Notes: generated by a model from the sequence alone, not told the origin. Positions 57,185 through 63,897 are shown, counted from the whole stretch's first letter. The stretch is DNA of 63,897 bases, filler included, from Collodictyon triciliatum (GCA_043381765.1; 10 parts of 10 records of this genome joined end to end with filler, not necessarily neighbours in it), one strand, 5' to 3'. Numbers and translations: made by a program.

Positions 57185-59388
57185 TATAGTACAATTACAG
57201 CATTCCAAATCGGCTCAATCATCCTTGGAATTAAACTCTACTCTAGATAACTGTCTCTCAAATCCGAGTTTGAGAATGAGACACCCCGATACAAGTGAAG
57301 ATTATGATAAAAATCCTGAAATAATTGCTGAGGGTGACAAACAAAGATGTCAAACTCTTGGGGGTCGTCATATGGCCGACAAATTAGATCTCACGAGTTC
57401 GGTGGGTGGTGCAAAATATCTTTTTCAAACAGCTTGGTGCCCTGTTTTTAAGGAGCCAGGGATTAAACACTCATCAACAAAATGGATATCTGGAATCCGT
57501 GCTCTTGTTTTAAGGTCTAACGAACTAGACCATAACGATATACGTATATTATGTTCGGCTCTTCATGACCAGAACTTGCCACTCGAAAGTATCGATCTGA
57601 GTCGCAACCTGATTGACTATTCGGGGGCAAAATACATCGGAACTCTCCTAAAAGAGCCAAATACTCGCATTAGGTTCCTAAACATGAATGAAAATCAATT
57701 GCTTGGAACTTTGGGATTCCAATCTATCATCGATAGTACGTTAAGTAACACTCAGTCTTTTCTTCGAAAGATGTGGTTTGATTTTTGTGGACTTGATTCA
57801 AATTCTGCATATGCATTGAGCAGGGCCCTTTCATTTGCATCTGCCAATCCACATTCTTGCGCTCTGGCCGAGATTAGTGTGAGAGGAAACTACTTACAGA
57901 CACAAGGTGCCAATATACTAGCCCCTTGCCTGCGAATAATATCCCCATGTAACCTTCGTATTCATATGGAATGGAACCATTTTAAGCGTGAAGGCGTTTC
58001 CATCCTGCTGCACGCCATGGCCCAAAACCAGTACACACAAGTATCTAATAGCACAACTTGGAACGTGGCGCGCCTAGGATTCCAAATGAATGGACTTACA
58101 AGAGCAGAAATGGCAAAAGTTATGGATGATGTTCGATTATGTTTGTATCAAGTCCAATCAACATGGGATGACATTTCTAACCATTCTTCATCTATTCATT
58201 CATCAATTGAAGAGGATGATAAGAAAATGGAGATGGAAGCCCAGGCTTCGTTACCAGACCCATATCCTGGAACTTTGGTGGATGCCATTGGAGGAGAGGA
58301 TATTCTTGTCAGAGTGGTTGATGATTTTTACTACAGACTCGTGACTGACCCTCAGTTAAGAGTAAGTGAATGAACCGATTTATCAGGTTCAATTTTTCAA
58401 GTGCATTTCATTTTAAACATCTGGTTTTGGTTGACAGTTAAAGAATTCCCCCAGAGTTTTTATTTTTTAAGAAAAACTTGCTTTTATTTCACCCCTTTTT
58501 TTCTATAGACCTTATTTTTCTTGCATTGTTTCTTTTTTTTTTTTTTTTTTTTTTTNNNNNNNNNNNNNNNNNNNNNNNNNNNNNNNNNNNNNNNNNNNNN
58601 NNNNNNNNNNNNNNNNNNNNNNNNNNNNNNNNNNNNNNNNNNNNNNNNNNNNNNNNNNNNNNNNNNNNNNNNNNNGCATCTTTAACTCTACAGAAATTAA
58701 TTGTTAAAGAGACTATCTTCTCTAGGTATTCTTTCGGGACATAAGTATGAATCGCATGCGACACTTACAGTATGCTTTTTTATTTGGAGGGATGGGTGGT
58801 CAAAAGTCCATCAACAACTCGAGTCTACGAAGGGCACATCGCCACCTAGGACTCACAGATGATCATTTCGATGCCACTGTAGGGCATTTGGTGGCTGCGA
58901 TATACCAGCAAAATCCTGCTTTTCCGACAGAAGCGTTGCTAAATTTGCACTCATATACAGAATCTTTGCGCCCTGACATTGCACAGGCAGGGGATTCCAC
59001 CGGGGTGCGATTCACAAACAGAGATGCAAAATCATTTCTTGAGATGTACACTCCAAAATCTAATCGAGACAATTCGAACGGGAATATCACCTGCCAGCAA
59101 TTACCACTTTCAGATTTCATTCGCTTCAAGTCGGCTGCTTTTTCGCCGTTCTCGATTTCATCTAACTCCATGTTAAACTTGAGCGGAATGGCAAAATCCA
59201 CACCAAATTTACATCTATCAGACTCTCTAGCACATCAAAAGATTCAATCACCCTCCCCTGCAGTATTAGAAGTATTGACAGGGTCAAATGTACTTGATGA
59301 GATTATATGTGAGAAAGACACAGCGCTAAGGACGAAGATAGATATCCAGATAGAGGACATAGTTAAACCTTTCTCGGAGACAGACTGA
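55755..59388 (+). CDS. Multi-TM protein fused to RNI-like LRRs and a group I truncated (2/2) haemoglobin (intron 58362-58725)
   Basis: Hydrophobic helices at about 56100-56970; LESIDLSRNLIDYSGAKYIG-type repeats; spliced globin LVDAIGGEDILVRVVDDFYYRLVTDPQLR/VFFRDISMNRMRHLQYAFL..MGG..LRRAHRHLGLTDDHFDATVGHL; phase-0 junction is in frame. Confidence 0.8.
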
Positions 59389-59796
59389 CCATGTCGAGAT
59401 TTGGTTATTATTTTCTCACTACAATACCAATCCATTTCCTCTTTTTCTTCTTGCTTGTTTATTATTTTTAGTGAAATTTTAGAATAAAACTTGATTTTAT
59501 GCAACCTCCCCTTGATGCATGATGCGCCCTTTTCTTACCCTCAGCAAAACCCTTGCATAAATAAAAAAACACATTTTGTGAAAAAACATACCATACATAC
59601 ATACATACATACATACATACATACATACATACATACATACATACATACATACATACATACATACATACATACATACATACATACATACATACATACANNN
59701 NNNNNNNNNNNNNNNNNNNNNNNNNNNNNNNNNNNNNNNNNTTAATTAATTAANNNNNNNNNNNNNNNNNNNNNNNNNNNNNNNNNNNNNNNNNNN

Positions 59797-59921
59797 NCGG
59801 GTTTGGCAAAAGTGGCGGTTCCGTACTCCGTAGACACATTTGTGGTTAATCAACATTTAGTTCTCCACATCAACATTTGTGTTGAAAATCGCCACCTTCG
59901 CCAAGCCCGAAACCGTTATAG
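59797..59921 (+). repeat. attC-like site 0 (left core cut by scaffold start)
   Basis: cgggtttggcaaaagtggcggtt pairs with aatcgccaccttcgccaagcccg; core GTTATAG at 59915. Confidence 0.75.
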
Positions 59922-59942
59922 GGCATTTTAAAAGACGACACC

Positions 59943-60617
59943 ATGCAGACAAGAAAACATATAGCTTGGAAGAAAAACCGAAAATTTGGTGACGTTTGGG
60001 GTGGACGAACTTTTCCAAAGCTTGCGGACAAAATATTTAATAGACAGCATAGTTTAACTGCACCAAAAAGTGACGAAACAACGCCAATTTATATAGTTGA
60101 CAATCCTTCCAGAGACTTCTACTTTCCTGTAACAGCAGACGAAATAAAAGCAACTCTTGACAAATTACCCAAAGACCACACCGACCATTTGACACATATT
60201 TGGTTGCAGAAAATTAAGAAGACATATTATGTAAACGGTGACACTTTTCAAGGTTCTTTTATTTGTGGTAGCAAAGTCTATTTAATAGTTATACATCCAT
60301 TTCCGACAGACAACAAAATGAGACTCGGAAAAACCAGACCATTACAAAAGACACTTAACTTTTACAAAAGCTATACGACAGATTTAAAAGAAGACAAAAA
60401 CGGTTGGTATTTACAATGGACAGAAGAAACGATTAGAAAATATTTTTTAGAAAGTTTGTTACTTCACGAAATTGCACATTCCTTAGATAGCTTTTATAAA
60501 AGATATTGGAGCAAAGCAACAACAACTAAAAGTGAAAATTTTGCCGACAATTATGTTGCTGTGTGGGCAGACAAAGTAAGAGAAACGTATAAACCAGATG
60601 AGAAAAACGCCCTATAA
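59943..60617 (+). CDS. Cassette 1: hypothetical protein with HExxH motif (possible zinc metallopeptidase fold)
   Basis: 224-aa ORF; LLLHEIAHS...ENFADNY; stop codon lies inside the CTATAAC core. Confidence 0.75.
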   Translation: MQTRKHIAWKKNRKFGDVWGGRTFPKLADKIFNRQHSLTAPKSDETTPIYIVDNPSRDFYFPVTADEIKATLDKLPKDHTDHLTHIWLQKIKKTYYVNGDTFQGSFICGSKVYLIVIHPFPTDNKMRLGKTRPLQKTLNFYKSYTTDLKEDKNGWYLQWTEETIRKYFLESLLLHEIAHSLDSFYKRYWSKATTTKSENFADNYVAVWADKVRETYKPDEKNAL

Positions 60618-60743
60618 CAGCACCTACAAGAAATTGGCGGTTCAGTTGTTTAATGAAGCTTTGTGCTTCGTATCAAATTCAGTGGTGGCAGACAGTTTTC
60701 GTCTCCGAAATCGCCAACTTCTTGTAGCTGCAAAACGTTAGCT
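60612..60743 (+). repeat. attC-like site 1 (132 bp)
   Basis: CTATAAC; gcacctacaagaaattggcggtt pairs with aatcgccaacttcttgtagctgc; aaaac GTTAGCT. Confidence 0.85.
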
Positions 60744-60772
60744 GTGATTTTAACGACCGAGACAAACTAATA

Positions 60773-61387
60773 ATGAATACTGCAACAGAAATAAAATTTG
60801 ACAAAGTAATTAAGGACGGATTTCACGAAATTTTAAAGCCACTTGGATTTAAAAAGAAGGCTAACAACTTTTATTTACAAAGACAAGAATTAGGACAATT
60901 AATCAATATCCAAAAAAGTTCCTTTTACTCAAAAGACCATATAAACTTTACAATTAATACAGGGCTATTTCTTCCTGAACATTGGACTGGCTTGACATAC
61001 AATGAAGGAAAAGAAATCCCAGCATTTCCGACTGAACCAGAATGTTTAATAAGGAAGCGAATTGGTAAACTCAGAAATCAACACGACACTTGGTATGACA
61101 TTGACGAGAAGATAGATGAGAATGCTTTGATAGTTGAAATGCGGGCGAACCTTTCAAAATATATTTTACCCTATTTCGAAAGAACAAAAACCAAAGAAGA
61201 CTTTTTAAATCTACTTGACAGCGAGAAATTAATTTTGGCACCTTTGGGTAAACTTATTGTTTATGCTGAATTAAAGCAATTTGAAAAGGCAAAGACAGAG
61301 TATTTGACATTTTTGAAGGAAAAAACTACCCCGCATTTTTTAGAAACTCTAAAAGAATACGCACAGAAATATGGACTTGACAAATAG
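60773..61387 (+). CDS. Cassette 2: DUF4304-like protein
   Basis: 204-aa ORF; LKPLGFKKKANNFY..INIQKS..FTINTG..RKRIG.L..DTWY pattern recalled for DUF4304, not searched. Confidence 0.7.
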   Translation: MNTATEIKFDKVIKDGFHEILKPLGFKKKANNFYLQRQELGQLINIQKSSFYSKDHINFTINTGLFLPEHWTGLTYNEGKEIPAFPTEPECLIRKRIGKLRNQHDTWYDIDEKIDENALIVEMRANLSKYILPYFERTKTKEDFLNLLDSEKLILAPLGKLIVYAELKQFEKAKTEYLTFLKEKTTPHFLETLKEYAQKYGLDK

Positions 61388-61396
61388 CAAAACCAC

Positions 61397-61528
61397 AGCT
61401 AACAGCCGTTTTGCAAAATCGGGGGTTTCGTCTTTCTTTGACATTGAAGTGCTGGATTCAAGCTTTTTGCATCTAAAGAAGTTTAGTGCTGAAAAACCCC
61501 GCCTTCGCAAAGCGGCAAAACGTTGGTC
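61397..61528 (+). repeat. attC-like site 2 (132 bp)
   Basis: AGCTAAC; gccgttttgcaaaatcggggg pairs with ccccgccttcgcaaagcggc; aaaac GTTGGTC. Confidence 0.85.
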
Positions 61529-61550
61529 GCAAGTAAATCGAAACTAACTT

Positions 61551-62312
61551 ATGCCGGAAGGAAATTGCAGACTTTGTACCAAATTTGGGAAGTTAACTTT
61601 TGAGCATGTTCCTCCGAAAGTTACTTTTAATAAGACTACACGTTATAAGGTGATTAATTATATGGATTACGTCAAAAAAAGTGATCCGTTCGAGCAAACT
61701 GCTAAAGGAAAAGTTGAACAAGGTGGTATTGGTTTTTATTCACTATGCAAAACTTGTAATAATTTTTTAGGGATTACTTATGTCCCAGCTTATCAGTTAT
61801 ATATAAACTCTTTCACTGATTTTGCAAAAAAGAAAGATTTAAATTCCTTTGAATTTACAATGCATGAATTTACTCCACTTAAAGTCTTAAAACAGATTTT
61901 GTCAATGTTCTTCTCAATTAATGATAAGAATTTTTCTGAAAATAATCGTGACTTAGCAAATTTTATTCTTGATCCAAAGTCTAAGAATTTGCCCAATCGG
62001 TTTAGAATATTTAATTATATAAATACAGAAGGACAATTGAGAAACCTTGGTTTAATGGCCTTAGGCAATTTAAATTCAGGTGGTATTATTGTAGCATCAG
62101 AAATAGCATTCCCACCTATGGGTTATCTTCTAACGGTTAACTTTCATGGACACTTACCCTATCATCAAGAAATAACTTCCTTTAATAAAAATGACATTGA
62201 AGAAAAAGTAGATTTTGATTTCAAGATTTATCGTCTACCAACACATCTGCCATATATACTAGACTATCGTGACAAAACAACAATTCAAAACAGTATAAAT
62301 AAGCAAAAGTAA
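61551..62312 (+). CDS. Cassette 3: HNH endonuclease-like protein
   Basis: 253-aa ORF; CRLC..LTFEHVPPK...LCKTCNNFLG zinc-binding HNH signature. Confidence 0.75.
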   Translation: MPEGNCRLCTKFGKLTFEHVPPKVTFNKTTRYKVINYMDYVKKSDPFEQTAKGKVEQGGIGFYSLCKTCNNFLGITYVPAYQLYINSFTDFAKKKDLNSFEFTMHEFTPLKVLKQILSMFFSINDKNFSENNRDLANFILDPKSKNLPNRFRIFNYINTEGQLRNLGLMALGNLNSGGIIVASEIAFPPMGYLLTVNFHGHLPYHQEITSFNKNDIEEKVDFDFKIYRLPTHLPYILDYRDKTTIQNSINKQK

Positions 62313-62322
62313 ACGAACCTGC

Positions 62323-62489
62323 GACCAACAAAAGGCTTTACGCAATTTGGGTTTCAGCAATGGCCTATCAGCTTTGATAGTGCTATTCAACTGTAGTAAT
62401 TTGGCTTTCAGCTAATCGCGTTTTTTAGTGGCCAAGCCAGCAGTAGGAACAATATTTCCCAAACTGCGTTAAGCCCGAAAACGTTATCA
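62323..62489 (+). repeat. attC-like site 3 (167 bp)
   Basis: GACCAAC; ggctttacgcaatttggg pairs with cccaaactgcgttaagcc; aaaac GTTATCA. Confidence 0.8.
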
Positions 62490-62678
62490 GCTACTCAGCT
62501 GCGTCGCAGATCCTAGCTGTGGGTTTTGGTTACCTTGGGCAAAAGAGCGAATGATTTTTCAAGGCGGCTTTAATCAACCCAGCTATTGAACAAGGCCAAA
62601 CTGGATAGCAGTATTATTAATGGAGTCTCTAATAGTTTCTGAGAGCGATTAATATAAATTCAATGAGCAGCTTATAAC
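62483..62678 (+). other. Cassette 4: ORF-less, structured cassette
   Basis: Bounded by GTTATCAGCTACTCA and TGAGCAGCTTATAAC; no long ORF; second copy at 63770. Confidence 0.7.
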
Positions 62679-62851
62679 AATAGGCTTTACGCAATTTGGG
62701 TTTCAGCAATGGCCCATCAGCTTTGGTNTTGCTTGCCAAAAGCGGGGCGTTCGCGGTGGCAGAAACTTTTCGGCTCCGAATAAAAATTTGTGGTAGCTTG
62801 AATGATGATGCTTCTAAAGCCCCGCCTTCGGCAAGCCCCAGAACGTTATAG
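62672..62851 (+). repeat. Composite attC-like site(s) joined at a single N (62728)
   Basis: Left part is near-identical to the site 3 left arm; right part is a separate hairpin gcttgccaaaagcggggc/gccccgccttcggcaagc ending GTTATAG. Confidence 0.7.
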
Positions 62852-62861
62852 GCAAGGCTAA

Positions 62862-63650
62862 ATGACGACACAGCAACTAAATAAAGTAAAGCAGACACTT
62901 GGATTTTTCTCTATGACCATTGCGTGGACATTGATGAATTTACTTCATTCCATTTATCTCGCTTGGACAGACGGCAAAGCGGATGACAGTGGTGTAATTA
63001 TTTTTTGGTCAGGACTTTTTATTACAATCTCTTGGGCAGTTTTTATAATCTTTCCTTTAAACAAGCTTGACCATTCGACACAGATTTTCAAACCTCTAGT
63101 CTTTCCTTTCATTGCAGCATTTTACGGAGCATTGACATATTCAATTATTGTCAGTGGACTGTTTCGCAGCCTTGACCTGGTAGTTATGTTTATGCCTTTA
63201 GCCTTGTTGACAGGTTTTATTTTCGGTTTTGTATATTCACAACTCATAAGGTTAGACAAATTAGTTGACTACCTTGTTAAACGACCATTAGCAAAGTCAA
63301 TTTTCTTTCTATCGCCAGTTATTATTTTATTCATTTTTTTATGGTTACTACCGACAATTGCCCCTTCATTGGTCTTTCGTTACATGCCTGATGAAATTAG
63401 ATATAAAATTATTGCTCGAACAATTCCCAAATTCAAAGTTGGAGACGACTTTGAACCCTTAAAAAATTCTCTTCCAGGTTTTCTTGACCACATTGACAAT
63501 GGAAGTGGAAACATGTCTGCAACAATGGAAAATTTCGGCTTTGCTTTACAAGTTCATTGCAACAAAATAATTAGACTTGAATACGGAAAAGACCAAAATG
63601 ATTTTGACGGAACAATTTATGGAAAACTTCAAGAGAAGCCCTGCCTATAA
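62862..63650 (+). CDS. Cassette 5: hypothetical membrane protein (about 5 TM plus a soluble C-terminal domain)
   Basis: 262-aa hydrophobic ORF; stop codon inside CTATAAC. Confidence 0.75.
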   Translation: MTTQQLNKVKQTLGFFSMTIAWTLMNLLHSIYLAWTDGKADDSGVIIFWSGLFITISWAVFIIFPLNKLDHSTQIFKPLVFPFIAAFYGALTYSIIVSGLFRSLDLVVMFMPLALLTGFIFGFVYSQLIRLDKLVDYLVKRPLAKSIFFLSPVIILFIFLWLLPTIAPSLVFRYMPDEIRYKIIARTIPKFKVGDDFEPLKNSLPGFLDHIDNGSGNMSATMENFGFALQVHCNKIIRLEYGKDQNDFDGTIYGKLQEKPCL

Positions 63651-63776
63651 CACGGGTTTTGCGTCAGGCGGGATGACGTTCAAACTTTGAGCTTTGTGCT
63701 TCTAATAAACTATAGTAATAAAATGAAACTTTGTGCTCCGAAACCCGCCCGAACGCAAAGCCCCGAAACGTTATCA
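63645..63776 (+). repeat. attC-like site 5 (132 bp)
   Basis: CTATAAC; cgggttttgcgtcaggcggg pairs with cccgcccgaacgcaaagccccg; aaac GTTATCA. Confidence 0.85.
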
Positions 63777-63897
63777 GCTACTCAGCTGCGGCGCAGATCC
63801 CGGCTGTGGGTTTGGTTACCTTGGGCAAAAGAGCGAATGATTATTCAAGGCGGCTTTAATCAACCCAGCTATTGAACAAGGCCGAACAGGATAGCAG
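63770..63897 (+). other. Cassette 6: second copy of the ORF-less cassette (cut by window end)
   Basis: About 7 differences over 128 nt relative to 62483-62611. Confidence 0.75.

Follow-up and report, generated by a model that had tools for sequence, protein, structure and literature searches.

Integrons, the textbook system of gene capture and shuffling, take their definition from IntI and attC. Can a row of genes separated by palindromes that depart from classical attC belong to the same kind of system, and which organism and which recombinase would then stand behind it? The question is raised by a separate contig at positions 59798–63897 of the DNA stretch analysed here (63,897 nt, filler included; hereafter the window), on which six cassettes lie on the + strand with six imperfect palindromes between them (AAC-to-GTT span about 124 nt). 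The reading we favour, with a probability of roughly 80%, is that this contig comes from the interior of a sedentary integron-like gene-cassette array in a bacterium of the Bacteroidota, served by a recombinase that is not a canonical IntI.

Anatomy of the array and origin of the contig

The whole window strings together some ten contigs, each roughly 6.64 kb in length, with runs of N and TTAATTAATTAA linkers between them, the linkers being present 9 times against 0.08 expected. The single "scaffold" assumed by the first-pass annotation is therefore a concatenation of contigs, and the finding is confined to the last of them, whose start lies within an attC and whose other end is truncated by the window boundary. 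All covariance-model matches of the 63.9-kb window fall within 59797–63776, and a pattern for the right arm of the sites matched 4 times in the window against 0 expected.

The Bacteroidota origin proposed from the sequence held up. Among the 120 site-pattern-matching stretches listed, 102 carried Bacteroidota lineage names and Ignavibacteria accounted for 3 further ones. Scanning bacterial genomes with a covariance model of the sites, as had been suggested, proved equally informative: the model built from the window sites (R1; genome matches counted at E ≤ 1e-8) found sites in 64 of 151 sampled Bacteroidota genomes against 1 of 151 of another phylum, many sampled genomes being MAGs. Taken together, this supports a bacterium of the Bacteroidota phylum as the source of the contig, which is probably a contaminant or an associate within an assembly of strung-together unplaced contigs.

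Table 1 Cassettes and sites of the array contig (window coordinates; CM, covariance model)
Feature	Position	Strand	Details
attC0, cut 5' by contig start (R'' missing)	59798–59917	+	R' GTT 59915–59917
Cassette 1 (ORF + attC1)	59916–60737	+	ORF 59943–60617, 224 aa, HExxH motif
attC1	60612–60743	+	AAC 60616–60618, GTT 60737–60739; AAC to GTT 124 nt; CM 127.4 bits
Cassette 2 (ORF + attC2)	60738–61522	+	ORF 60773–61387, 204 aa, DUF4304
attC2	61397–61528	+	AAC 61401–61403, GTT 61522–61524; CM 118.2 bits
Cassette 3 (ORF + long attC3)	61523–62483	+	ORF 61551–62312, 253 aa, no family
attC3, long variant	62323–62490	+	AAC 62327–62329, GTT 62483–62485; AAC to GTT 159 nt
Cassette 4, ORF-less, copy 1	62484–62678	+	about 195 bp
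attC4, composite	62676–62847	+	AAC 62676–62678, GTT 62845–62847; 172 nt; N at 62728
Cassette 5 (ORF + attC5)	62846–63770	+	ORF 62862–63650, 262 aa
attC5	63645–63776	+	AAC 63649–63651, GTT 63770–63772; CM 120.2 bits
Cassette 6, ORF-less, copy 2, truncated by window end	63771–63897	+	

The single genes between the sites comprise four ORFs of 204–262 aa, all on the + strand as first described. The ORF of cassette 2 matched Pfam PF14137 (E 7.8e-27), that of cassette 3 gave a weak hint of HNH_5 in Pfam (E 0.061), and those of cassettes 1 and 5 had no family in Pfam, NCBIfam or PADLOC. Cassette 4 contains no ORF of 20 aa or more and no Rfam family, and its RNA fold reached a z of 0.27. This ORF-less cassette is present twice, behind different sites, the two copies being about 93% identical from GTT on and differing in their upstream arms.

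Several details noted at first sight were also correct, namely three equal AAC-to-GTT distances (60618–60737, 61403–61522 and 63651–63770), cores that depart from GTTRRRY (GTTATAG, GTTAGCT, GTTGGTC and GTTATCA), and stop codons within the left core, where the TAA of the ORFs ending at 60617 and 63650 lies inside TATAAC. The truncated attC0 scored 106.3 bits with R1 (- strand), the 23-nt stem arms of attC1 are 87% complementary, and the long attC3 reached just 27.5 bits. In the composite attC4, R'' and the left arm match the attC3 left arm at 91% identity, and the part past the N is a 132-type site without its own R'' (102.2 bits for 62728–62851).

Cassette 1 has 14 metagenome homologues (53–83% identity) flanked by R1 sites, and this cassette, of roughly 725–780 bp, is all that four long metagenome loci have in common with the window or among themselves. 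This shows that cassette 1 spreads as a modular unit, bounded by sites and with differing neighbours.

Crossover signature and folding of the sites

In the window, the 13–15 nt after each GTT pair with the 13–15 nt preceding the AAC at the end of that cassette. The resulting inverted repeats are 93% complementary in cassettes 1 (15 nt, 59915–59929/60604–60618), 2 (60737–60751/61389–61403) and 5 (62845–62859/63637–63651) and 92% in cassette 3 (61522–61534/62317–62329). The sequence following GTT thus complements the sequence preceding the AAC of the next site, not of its own: among 86 adjacent pairs from many genomes, pairing with the next site was 78–93% complementary at positions 1–6 and 65–76% at 9–12, and same-site pairing at variable positions was 29–38%, equal to random pairs. 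At the level of sequence, this offset complementarity shows the integron signature of a crossover at GTT, which is predicted to lie within the invariant C-GTT-A block. Together with the homologues of cassette 1 moving as site-bounded units, it bears out the initial identification of an integron-like cassette array; the anatomy of array and sites, the crossover region and the strand asymmetry are likewise shown.

In relatives, the sites are 132 nt long (model R1), and 105 of 181 have an AAC-to-GTT span of 124 nt; the AAC and GTT themselves are invariant in 114–115 of 116 aligned sites, within the wider consensus nTAAC/GTTAn. The view that structure and length are conserved rather than sequence was therefore right on structure and length but not on sequence, since the sites score >100 bits across the phylum. 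Across the 116 sites, 86.9% of the cells are paired, a share that falls to 65.0% on shuffling, and covariation is seen in 22 of the 23 stem pairs; in an alignment of the six window sites, compensatory changes were found in 17 of 24 predicted pairs.

Classical attC sites are described as imperfect palindromes flanked by inverse cores RYYYAAC/GTTRRRY and carrying extrahelical bases, which bulge out unpaired from one arm close to L'' (PMC5027507). The sites described here are non-canonical, as the first-pass annotation had held, in lacking bulged extrahelical bases and in having an asymmetric spacer and an R box of at least 12 bp. Their R box pairs TAAC with GTTA and reaches this length in the free cassette; the spacer has 5 nt on one side and 1 nt on the other (GTTTT and T); and inward of it the hairpin forms a 23-bp stem with a conserved C/A mismatch, followed by a variable head of about 66 nt. 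No consistent bulge column was found across 116 aligned sites. In place of bulges, the sites have a 1x1 C/A mismatch (column 17/192, where 72 of 115 are unpaired), and column 183 of the site alignment is an invariant T with G or C across from it. The window folds contained 1x1 mismatches in attC0 to attC2 and one bulge in attC5.

The bottom strand out-folds the top in all four sites folded on both strands, for instance in attC0 (-23.6 kcal/mol, z -3.95, vs -21.4), attC1 (-25.0 vs -20.2) and attC5 (-21.7 vs -16.7); the bottom strand of attC3 folds at -24.6 kcal/mol (z -2.39). G-T wobbles are kept on the bottom strand alone (column 30/183, 94 of 116 sites), and 133 of 181 sites have, at R-box position 8 of the top strand, an A facing a C. 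We infer that the folded single strand is the recombination substrate.

Recombinase and attI junction in related arrays

No recombinase and no attI occur within the window, so the link to an enzyme rests on relatives. The suggestion to look for an array-linked tyrosine recombinase and compare it with IntI was fruitful there: arrays of relatives begin some 90 nt past the end of a tyrosine recombinase gene of the same orientation (here type B, with type A for the canonical IntI of the phylum), which forms its own clade and lacks the IntI insert. Homologues lie within nine 8-kb site-bearing stretches. Sites were present in 20 of 20 genomes with a full-length recombinase match (≥390 bits) versus 44 of 131 others (Fisher p 4.7e-9, a statistic that ignores phylogeny), and at least 10 of these 20 carried the gene on one contig with a site, 0.3–7 kb away. 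The association is incomplete in both directions: 24 of the 64 site-positive genomes had no type-B recombinase at E ≤ 1e-60, 12 recombinase-positive genomes had no site, and the homologue in genome G002 had no site within 10 kb. Orientation also varies, the gene being divergent in genome G004, and shorter paralogues without the N-terminal domain lie divergent beside arrays in three genomes.

We predicted the attI junction as GTT plus the reverse complement of the R'' flank of the first site. Of 9 co-oriented loci, 7 contained the start of the first cassette predicted in this way, with 10–11 of 12 positions matching. Four of these 7 have the attI-like junction 90–98 nt past the stop codon of the recombinase gene, preceded by a small hairpin and a TATAAA-like box. 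These loci demonstrate recombinase linkage and an attI junction in relatives; by extension, the window's own organism would carry a type-B recombinase.

The type-B recombinase scored 191.9 bits with TIGR02249 in two stretches, under the cut-off of 265, compared with 380–497 bits for full-length type-A recombinases. Its best family was XerA-like (NF040815, 221.1 bits), its best solved-structure match XerA (4a8e, E 1.2e-39), and its best Foldseek matches XerA and IntI4; it also matched PF00589 (Phage_integrase, E 4e-42). The catalytic residues R219, K244, H308, R311, H334 and Y343 are invariant in a 31-sequence alignment. This enzyme would perform the recombination chemistry. IntI carries a specific additional region near patch III, designated intI_Cterm (PMC4889954). 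In the array-linked enzymes of relatives, VchIntIA residues 209–247 have no counterpart and the roughly 41-residue IntI-specific insert, by which the extrahelical bases are held, is missing; the KxKDR-to-LRH segment measures 66–67 aa in 8 of 8 type-B sequences versus 108 aa in those 4 IntI rows, out of 14, in which both motifs were found. In the tree, type B forms a clade of its own (88/97), separate from IntI (100/100), and its grouping with IntI sets it off from the XerC/D-like paralogues that these genomes also carry (100/99). The enzyme has an extra N-terminal domain (beta-beta-alpha-beta-beta), which may substitute for extrahelical-base recognition.

In the mechanism we propose, each cassette would consist of a gene lacking a promoter, or of an ORF-less segment, plus a downstream site of about 132 nt, whose bottom (-) strand would fold into a hairpin of R box, asymmetric spacer, 23-bp stem and variable head. 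A tyrosine recombinase would swap strands at the invariant C-GTT-A block, so that recombination between two sites would excise a cassette as a circle and recombination between a cassette site and an attI-like site would insert it, the latter site being placed, by analogy with relatives, about 90 nt downstream of a recombinase gene that points into the array. Cassette joints in short metagenome contigs (90% likeness) may reflect just shared repeats.

Arrays of these sites can be extensive. Genome G001 has 337 sites on a single strand over 506.8 kb (median spacing 855 bp), and G004 has 73 over 216.8 kb. The longest ORF of a cassette was on the top strand in 211 cases and on the bottom strand in 29 in G001, where 63 of 303 cassettes had no ORF of 50 aa or more; the corresponding figures for G004 were 36, 11 and 2 of 49. 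To our knowledge, 337 sites over 507 kb exceeds what is reported for Vibrio. The remark that classical integrons are rarely reported in this lineage needs a correction: IntI genes are not rare, exceeding the TIGR02249 cut-off in 50 of 151 sampled Bacteroidota genomes, and what has gone unreported is their arrays. In the literature searched, we found no description of the sites and arrays of the present type, and IntegronFinder 2.0 gives only In0 and one complete integron for Bacteroidetes (PMC9024848), although 64 of the 151 species sampled here have R1 sites.

Alternative readings and known systems

It is unlikely that the contig belongs to an ordinary integron array (a CALIN fragment) with divergent attC sites served by a canonical IntI in trans or in cis, the Xer-like gene being incidental. 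Such an account would draw on the AAC/GTT cores and TAACG...TGTTA ends common to sites beside TIGR02249-class IntI, on the frequency of IntI in the phylum, and on the site-positive genomes without a type-B recombinase. However, none of the five array-bearing genomes (G001–G005), including G001 with its 337 sites, has an IntI over the cut-off, and IntI and R1 sites do not co-occur (both 19, IntI only 31, sites only 45, neither 56; odds ratio 0.76). Moreover, IntI-adjoining sites score 17–44 bits with R1 and, in 3 of 3 folded, show a pair of single-base bulges, spaced by 6 bp along the 3' arm of the bottom strand, which the window sites lack, and the attI junction is positioned behind the type-B gene.

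We consider it extremely unlikely that the palindromes are self-spreading REP-like or terminator-like repeats with no mobility of the genes between them. They are indeed intergenic, GC-richer hairpins downstream of genes, abundant and sequence-conserved across the phylum, but this candidate is contradicted by flanks that pair with the next copy across the gene, which would be pointless for independent repeats. In addition, homology between unrelated arrays or copies stops at the AAC/GTT cores, all G001 sites lie on one strand with co-oriented ORFs, and a recombinase and attI-like junction head arrays. A third reading, in which the contig is a chimera across repeats of several organisms in a contaminated sample and the cassette order is not real, is very unlikely for the contig as a whole, although part of it may be a chimeric assembly because attC4 is aberrant and contains an N. 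The concatenation of short contigs in the window is compatible with it, as is the read coverage: none of the public runs held more than 0.32 of the sampled words of 59798–62727, and cassettes are split among runs, cassette 2 being covered by contigs of two runs and 61506–62362 (cassette 3) by contigs of two others, each with 0–3 differences. Even so, each cassette and site is individually real and found elsewhere, and 4 of 5 cassette-to-site junctions of the window have the matched R'/R'' pairs of intact cassettes.

Beyond the favoured reading of a Bacteroidota array with its own recombinase, we see even chances for a wider one, namely a second, IntI-independent integron lineage native to Bacteroidota, present in about four of ten sampled species, missed by standard finders and storing cassettes in arrays that can run to hundreds of sites and take up about 12% of one genome. 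Its recombinase would have branched off near IntI, either losing the extrahelical-grip domain or never having possessed it, and would read mismatches and wobbles of a folded strand, perhaps via the new N-terminal domain. If so, integron biology has overlooked the cassette metagenome of Bacteroidota in freshwater, soil and the sea, and surveys of integron distribution and of environmental cassettes miss much of what is there, the phylum running a parallel system with another recombinase clade and another way to mark the active strand. The joint presence of insert and bulges in type A and the absence of both in type B, within one phylum, would amount to a natural experiment on folded-site recognition, and arrays of 0.2–0.5 Mb would raise questions about their stability and the role of their mostly unannotated cargo. 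The window itself is a small fragment, yet it led to the family.

Classical integrons, e.g., the Vibrio super-integron, share with this system the promoterless, co-oriented single-gene cassettes each ending in an AAC...GTT palindrome, the GTT crossover, which assigns the R' flank to the following cassette, the better-folding bottom strand, the tyrosine recombinase and attI-like junction at the head of the array, site sequences conserved within a host clade, and diverse cargo of mostly unknown function with some ORF-less cassettes. They differ in site structure (bulges, as opposed to a C/A mismatch, an invariant T opposite G/C, a 5 nt/1 nt spacer and the long R box), in the IntI insert (intI_Cterm/I2 region) that the recombinase described here lacks while scoring under the TIGR02249 cut-off, in its extra N-terminal domain, and in its gene being co-oriented with the cassettes in most loci rather than divergent. 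An integrase gene oriented with the cassettes is also a feature of the reverse (inverted-integrase) integrons of Treponema, which, unlike the present system, have a true IntI with an additional domain and conventional attC sites.

Within the phylum, type-A integrons (In0 in IntegronFinder) resemble the type-B arrays in their TAACG...TGTTA ends, site length (about 121–131 nt) and similarly asymmetric spacer; they differ in the two bulges of their sites, the 108-aa segment with the IntI insert, arrays divergent from intI (two stretches), and the lack of co-occurrence with type-B sites. Xer recombinases, among which XerA is the best family and structure match of the type-B enzyme, likewise have no IntI insert. 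Xer enzymes (XerC/XerD, archaeal XerA; dif/pdif) act on double-stranded dif sites of about 28 bp, whereas the sites described here are 130-nt hairpins in arrays and the type-B clade groups with IntI.

A cassette array on the last contig

The last contig of the window (59798–63897) holds a real feature, an integron-like cassette array of Bacteroidota type. Four ORFs of 204–262 aa lie on its + strand, each followed 3′ by an imperfect palindrome with AAC at its start and GTT at its end, and direct inspection of the window sequence bore out what the first-pass annotation had described: identical AAC-to-GTT distances in three sites, four variants of the core, and two TAA stops within TATAAC. The contig opens partway through a recombination site and continues for ~2.5 kb past the end of the window, which truncates it; no recombinase was found within the window. 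In integrons, crossover occurs between G and TT of the right core (R′), DNA 3′ of GTT belongs to the next cassette, and this post-GTT sequence pairs with the left core (R′′) of its own cassette's site. A right-arm pattern had four matches in the window against zero expected, and the complementary pairs of the contig are listed in the table. We extended the pairing test to 181 full-length sites, drawn from the window as well as related loci and forming 86 adjacent pairs: the 12 nt after the upstream GTT and the 12 nt before the downstream AAC were 78–93% complementary at positions 1–6 and 65–76% at positions 9–12, whereas same-site pairing stayed at the level of random pairs (29–38% at variable positions). 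Independent REP-like or terminator repeats would have no reason for such next-site complementarity, which speaks against this alternative.

Features of the window, with positions along the whole stretch
Feature	Position	Strand	Remarks
Poly-T, ~20 nt	58536–58556		beside assembly gap, preceding contig
(CATA)n microsatellite, ~27 units	59590–59698		beside assembly gap, preceding contig
Complementary pair	59915–59929 / 60604–60618		15 nt, 93%
Complementary pair	60737–60751 / 61389–61403		15 nt, 93%
Complementary pair	61522–61534 / 62317–62329		13 nt, 92%
Complementary pair	62845–62859 / 63637–63651		15 nt, 93%
ORF-less cassette, ~195 bp	62484–62678 and 63771–63897 (second cut by window end)	+	two copies, ~93% identical
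attC4, composite site	62676–62847	+	R′′ and left arm 91% identical to left arm of attC3

Most of the cargo lacks a family assignment, a typical trait of chromosomal cassette arrays. The cassette 2 protein (DUF4304) has the sole Pfam name among the window cargo, NCBIfam names none of the cargo ORFs, and no family was accepted from Pfam, NCBIfam or PADLOC for the ORFs of cassettes 1, 3 and 5; a PADLOC match to Csx23 (E 0.0039) was weak and distrusted. The cassette-1 protein (ORF 59943–60617) carries an HExxH motif, LLHEIAHS. Against ~1.6 Mb of related arrays, the window ORFs gave one weak DUF4304 match, and neither the other ORFs nor the ORF-less cassette matched anything there. The two copies of the latter sit behind two different sites, their identity beginning at GTT, and the cassette had high contig depth in four public sequencing runs. 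Its reading as a structured RNA was set aside (fold z 0.27, no Rfam match), and all four Rfam matches to the contig at E ≤ 1 lay far under the gathering score. In attC4, the left arm is followed by an N at 62728 and then by a site of the 132-nt type lacking an R′′ of its own; this composite may have been left by recombination or may be a chimera of the assembly.

The linker TTAATTAATTAA recurs between the N runs (nine copies at ~6.64 kb spacing in a motif count over the window, against 0.08 expected), indicating that about ten contigs, sorted by length, were joined to give the window, which is not a single molecule; the linker is a six-frame stop. The pieces at 1–59797, with few long ORFs, a poly-T run, a (CATA)n microsatellite, and no Pfam family for the two ORFs scanned, appear non-bacterial, and the cassette contig probably represents bacterial DNA carried along in the assembly of another organism.

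Structure, distribution and mobility of the site family

In all four sites compared, the − strand folded more strongly than the + strand (−23.6/−21.4, −25.0/−20.2, −21.6/−21.1, and −21.7/−16.7 kcal/mol); attC4, which carries an N, lies outside this comparison. Across 116 aligned sites, 86.9% of cells were paired, against 65.0% when shuffled and 38–49% when slid, and 22 of 23 stem pairs covaried. Among the 116 sites, column 30/183 holds a G-T pair in 94, its T being invariant, and column 25/186 has G-C 61 times and G-T 46 times. At R-box position 8, the top strand has A in 176/181 sites, opposite C (133) or G (41), and several bottom-strand G-T wobbles correspond to A-C mismatches on the top strand. 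Such a wobble pattern makes sense only for one folded strand, suggesting that a single folded strand is the working form of the site. The bottom-strand consensus, TAAC-G-TTTT-(23-bp stem)-~66 nt-(stem)-T-GTTA, implies an asymmetric spacer, with 5 nt facing 1 nt.

A passage in PMC5027507 describes the extrahelical bases of classical attC sites as bulging from one arm. No consistent bulge of this kind occurs in the 116 aligned window-type sites. At the fifth pair or so of the stem they instead carry a 1 × 1 C/A mismatch, five pairs in, which is unpaired in 72/115, the invariant T opposite G or C being their other mark; the first-pass annotation was right that classical boxes with extrahelical bases are not obvious here. 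Its further claim, that structure and length are conserved rather than sequence, held for structure and length only: R1, a 132-position covariance model built from five window sites, gave more than 100 bits to many foreign sites whose length was exactly 132 nt, so that sequence is conserved across the phylum beyond shape. The covariance-model scan of other genomes that it had proposed returned R1 matches (E ≤ 1e-8) in 64/151 genomes of the phylum against 1/151 in the phylum to which a control genome belongs, each phylum being evenly sampled, and R1 matched nothing in the 59.8 kb of the window outside the cassette contig. An exact-pattern scan with one genome per species hit at least 120 stretches; by record titles, 102 of the 120 matches listed are from Bacteroidota and 3 from Ignavibacteria, and 10 of the other 15 listed, which lack a model match, are probably chance matches. 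Isolate draft genomes also carry sites, examples being Chryseobacterium gregarium DSM 19109, Cytophaga aurantiaca DSM 3654 and Thermoflexibacter ruber DSM 9560.

One array lies in a closed 4.27-Mb MAG chromosome (G001, CP058707.1), where a profile of 116 sites found 337 sites on one strand over 506.8 kb (3,475,741–3,982,499; 11.9% of the genome) at a median spacing of 855 bp. To our knowledge, this exceeds any known integron array. The longest ORF per cassette lay on the array strand in 211 cases versus 29 on the other, and 63/303 cassettes had no ORF ≥50 aa, in an assembly with ambiguous bases. In a second genome (G004), 73 sites extend over 216.8 kb, interrupted by two large gaps, the longest ORF of its 49 cassettes being on the array strand in 36 and on the other in 11. 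On one contig (G082:C56, ~2,850–68,300), sites of opposite strand flank a recombinase gene of type B (defined below) on both sides, which suggests two arrays around one such gene.

Comparison with metagenome loci indicates that cassettes move as units. Homologues of cassette 1 occur at 14 metagenome loci with 53–83% identity; judged where flank was available, three (L193, L195, L196) have R1 sites on both sides and three more (L194, L199, L202) on at least one. What four long metagenome loci have in common, among themselves as well as with the window, is only ~725–780 bp, running from just before GTT up to AAC, and none of these four holds any other window ORF. Of the words sampled from 59798–62727, no public run contained a fraction above 0.32, cassette 2 occurring on contigs of X1 and X5 and cassette 3 on contigs of X3 and X4; window parts left uncovered by these contigs do not count as absence. 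The run contigs diverge from the window at 59918–59920, 60615–60620, 60740, 61525, 62326, 62485–62486, and 62675, i.e., at the cores, which lends weak support to cassette units since the contigs are short and break at repeats. Joints skipping 62486–62675, on short contigs with 90% likeness and sides of 24–35 nt, may reflect merely shared repeats.

The array-linked recombinase

None of five array-bearing genomes had an over-cut-off match to TIGR02249, the integron integrase (IntI) family, and the best sub-threshold match lay 3–9 kb past the last site in three of them (G001, G003, G004). The G004 protein (361 aa) scored 221.1 bits on an XerA-type family (cut-off 220) and 191.9 bits on TIGR02249 (cut-off 265), and consists of ~90 unassigned residues followed by SAM-like and catalytic domains. 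Among solved structures, XerA was its best match; VchIntIA aligned in two pieces, leaving chain residues 209–247 unmatched, a region presented in part of PMC4889954 as IntI-specific and as the basis of the IntegronFinder intI_Cterm profile. KxKDR and LRH are 66–67 residues apart in 8/8 array-linked enzymes and 70 in one Xer paralogue, but 108, with an ALDRKYPNA...W.WQ.VFP segment, in the four IntI proteins of the phylum caught by a regular expression. A maximum-likelihood tree was built from 30 proteins and does not include proteobacterial IntI. In it, the array-linked enzymes formed one clade (88/97), hereafter type B, and IntI another (100/100), both apart from the XerC/D-like paralogues that those genomes also encode (100/99); the tree does not fix the branching order of type B, IntI, and two long-branch paralogues.

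Type-B homologues were found by tblastn inside nine 8-kb site-bearing stretches (L032, L018, L081, L118, L083, L045, L001, L059, L016), those of L083 and L016 being broken, and a further one lies within the array of L057 on the opposite strand. At E ≤ 1e-60, 52/151 genomes had a type-B match: 40 with sites and 12 without, against 24 with sites only and 75 with neither (odds ratio 10.4, p = 4.8e-10, ignoring phylogeny). Sites are present in every one of the 20 genomes whose full-length match reaches ≥390 bits, and in at least 10 of these, among 150 of 318 sites listed, gene and site share a contig at 0.3–7 kb. The two follow-ups suggested at first pass, a search for a recombinase beside such arrays and its comparison with IntI, both gave an answer in relatives, namely a type-B enzyme in its own clade and without the IntI insert. 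At most loci the array lies downstream of the gene, which is oriented toward it; in G004 the gene is divergent. Shorter paralogues that lack the N-terminal domain are likewise divergent from the arrays they adjoin in G049, G012, and G062, and the G002 homologue has no site within 10 kb. In G001, the type-B gene lies 3.3 kb beyond the last site.

For the junction between gene and array, the expected cassette start, had the first cassette entered at an attI, was taken as GTT plus the reverse-complemented flank that precedes the first-site AAC. Seven of nine co-oriented loci contained this 15-mer at 10–11/12 matches, most often missing at position 8, the conserved mismatch, and we estimate the chance of such a match at ≤~0.005 per locus. 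The junction lies 90–98 nt past the recombinase stop codon in four loci (L081, L118, L045, L131) and 178, 685, and 2604 nt past it in L001, L032, and L130, respectively. A small hairpin and a gTATAAAyAA-like box lie on the 5′ side of this attI-like junction.

The first 85 residues are predicted by AlphaFold2 to form a beta-beta-alpha-beta-beta unit with two near-invariant tryptophans (pLDDT 83.9 for the whole enzyme and 80.0 for these residues alone). Pfam matches to DUF5710 or HARP were weak and under cut-offs, the best Foldseek match, to the SMARCAL1 HARP domain, reached only E 0.45 and is a hint at most, and VIA-align gave Z < 4 for all 999 chains. We conjecture that this domain takes part in reading the hairpin. 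A 538-aa type-B recombinase (L018, 3401–5017) has three such domains in tandem. Some array-linked type-B genes are cut off or have in-frame stops (L001 6058–7071, L083, L016; G052:C28:112239–113204, G084:C2:776961–777992); truncated or stop-bearing integrases are known from old chromosomal integrons.

Relation to classical integrons

A literature search of open articles, excluding supplements (which may list Bacteroidetes CALIN or In0) and subscription journals, returned no description of these arrays, and an earlier one may exist elsewhere. In the portions consulted, PMC9024848 (IntegronFinder) reports that Bacteroidetes had yielded only In0 before a single complete integron was found, in Salinibacter ruber; a section of PMC8618304 counts Bacteroidota among phyla with integrons, and an excerpt of 10.1101/2024.07.02.601686 among clades earlier found without. 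PMC13674405, PMC13616975, PMC11386340, 10.1101/2024.05.13.594038 and PMC7370490 had no bearing on the arrays.

Canonical IntI (type A) is present in the phylum: 50/151 sampled genomes exceed the TIGR02249 cut-off, in agreement with the Bacteroidetes In0 elements mentioned in PMC9024848. IntI was not enriched among genomes with R1 sites (both, 19; IntI only, 31; sites only, 45; neither, 56). Sites in IntI-adjoining arrays (L179, L180, L184; G061, G113, G021) measure 121–131 nt and reach only 17–44 bits on R1, while sharing TAACG...TGTTA ends with R1 sites. All three that were folded have two single-base bulges, 6 bp apart, in the bottom-strand 3′ arm, which is the classical integron arrangement. 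Taken together, the comparison pairs, within one phylum, an insert-bearing enzyme with bulged sites and an insert-less enzyme with unbulged ones. The window sites belong to the unbulged, type-B kind: they themselves score as the training set, and their nearest foreign relatives include first sites behind type-B genes (L081, 111.8 bits; L032, 112.9; L083, 112.1).

Bulged extrahelical bases are one defining feature of classical attC, which the window sites lack, and a specific insert is defining for IntI, which the array-linked recombinase of relatives lacks. Given both, we do not file the array as a classical integron, though it would be integron-like in its working. Many of the over-cut-off IntI genes lie 220–430 nt from a contig end.
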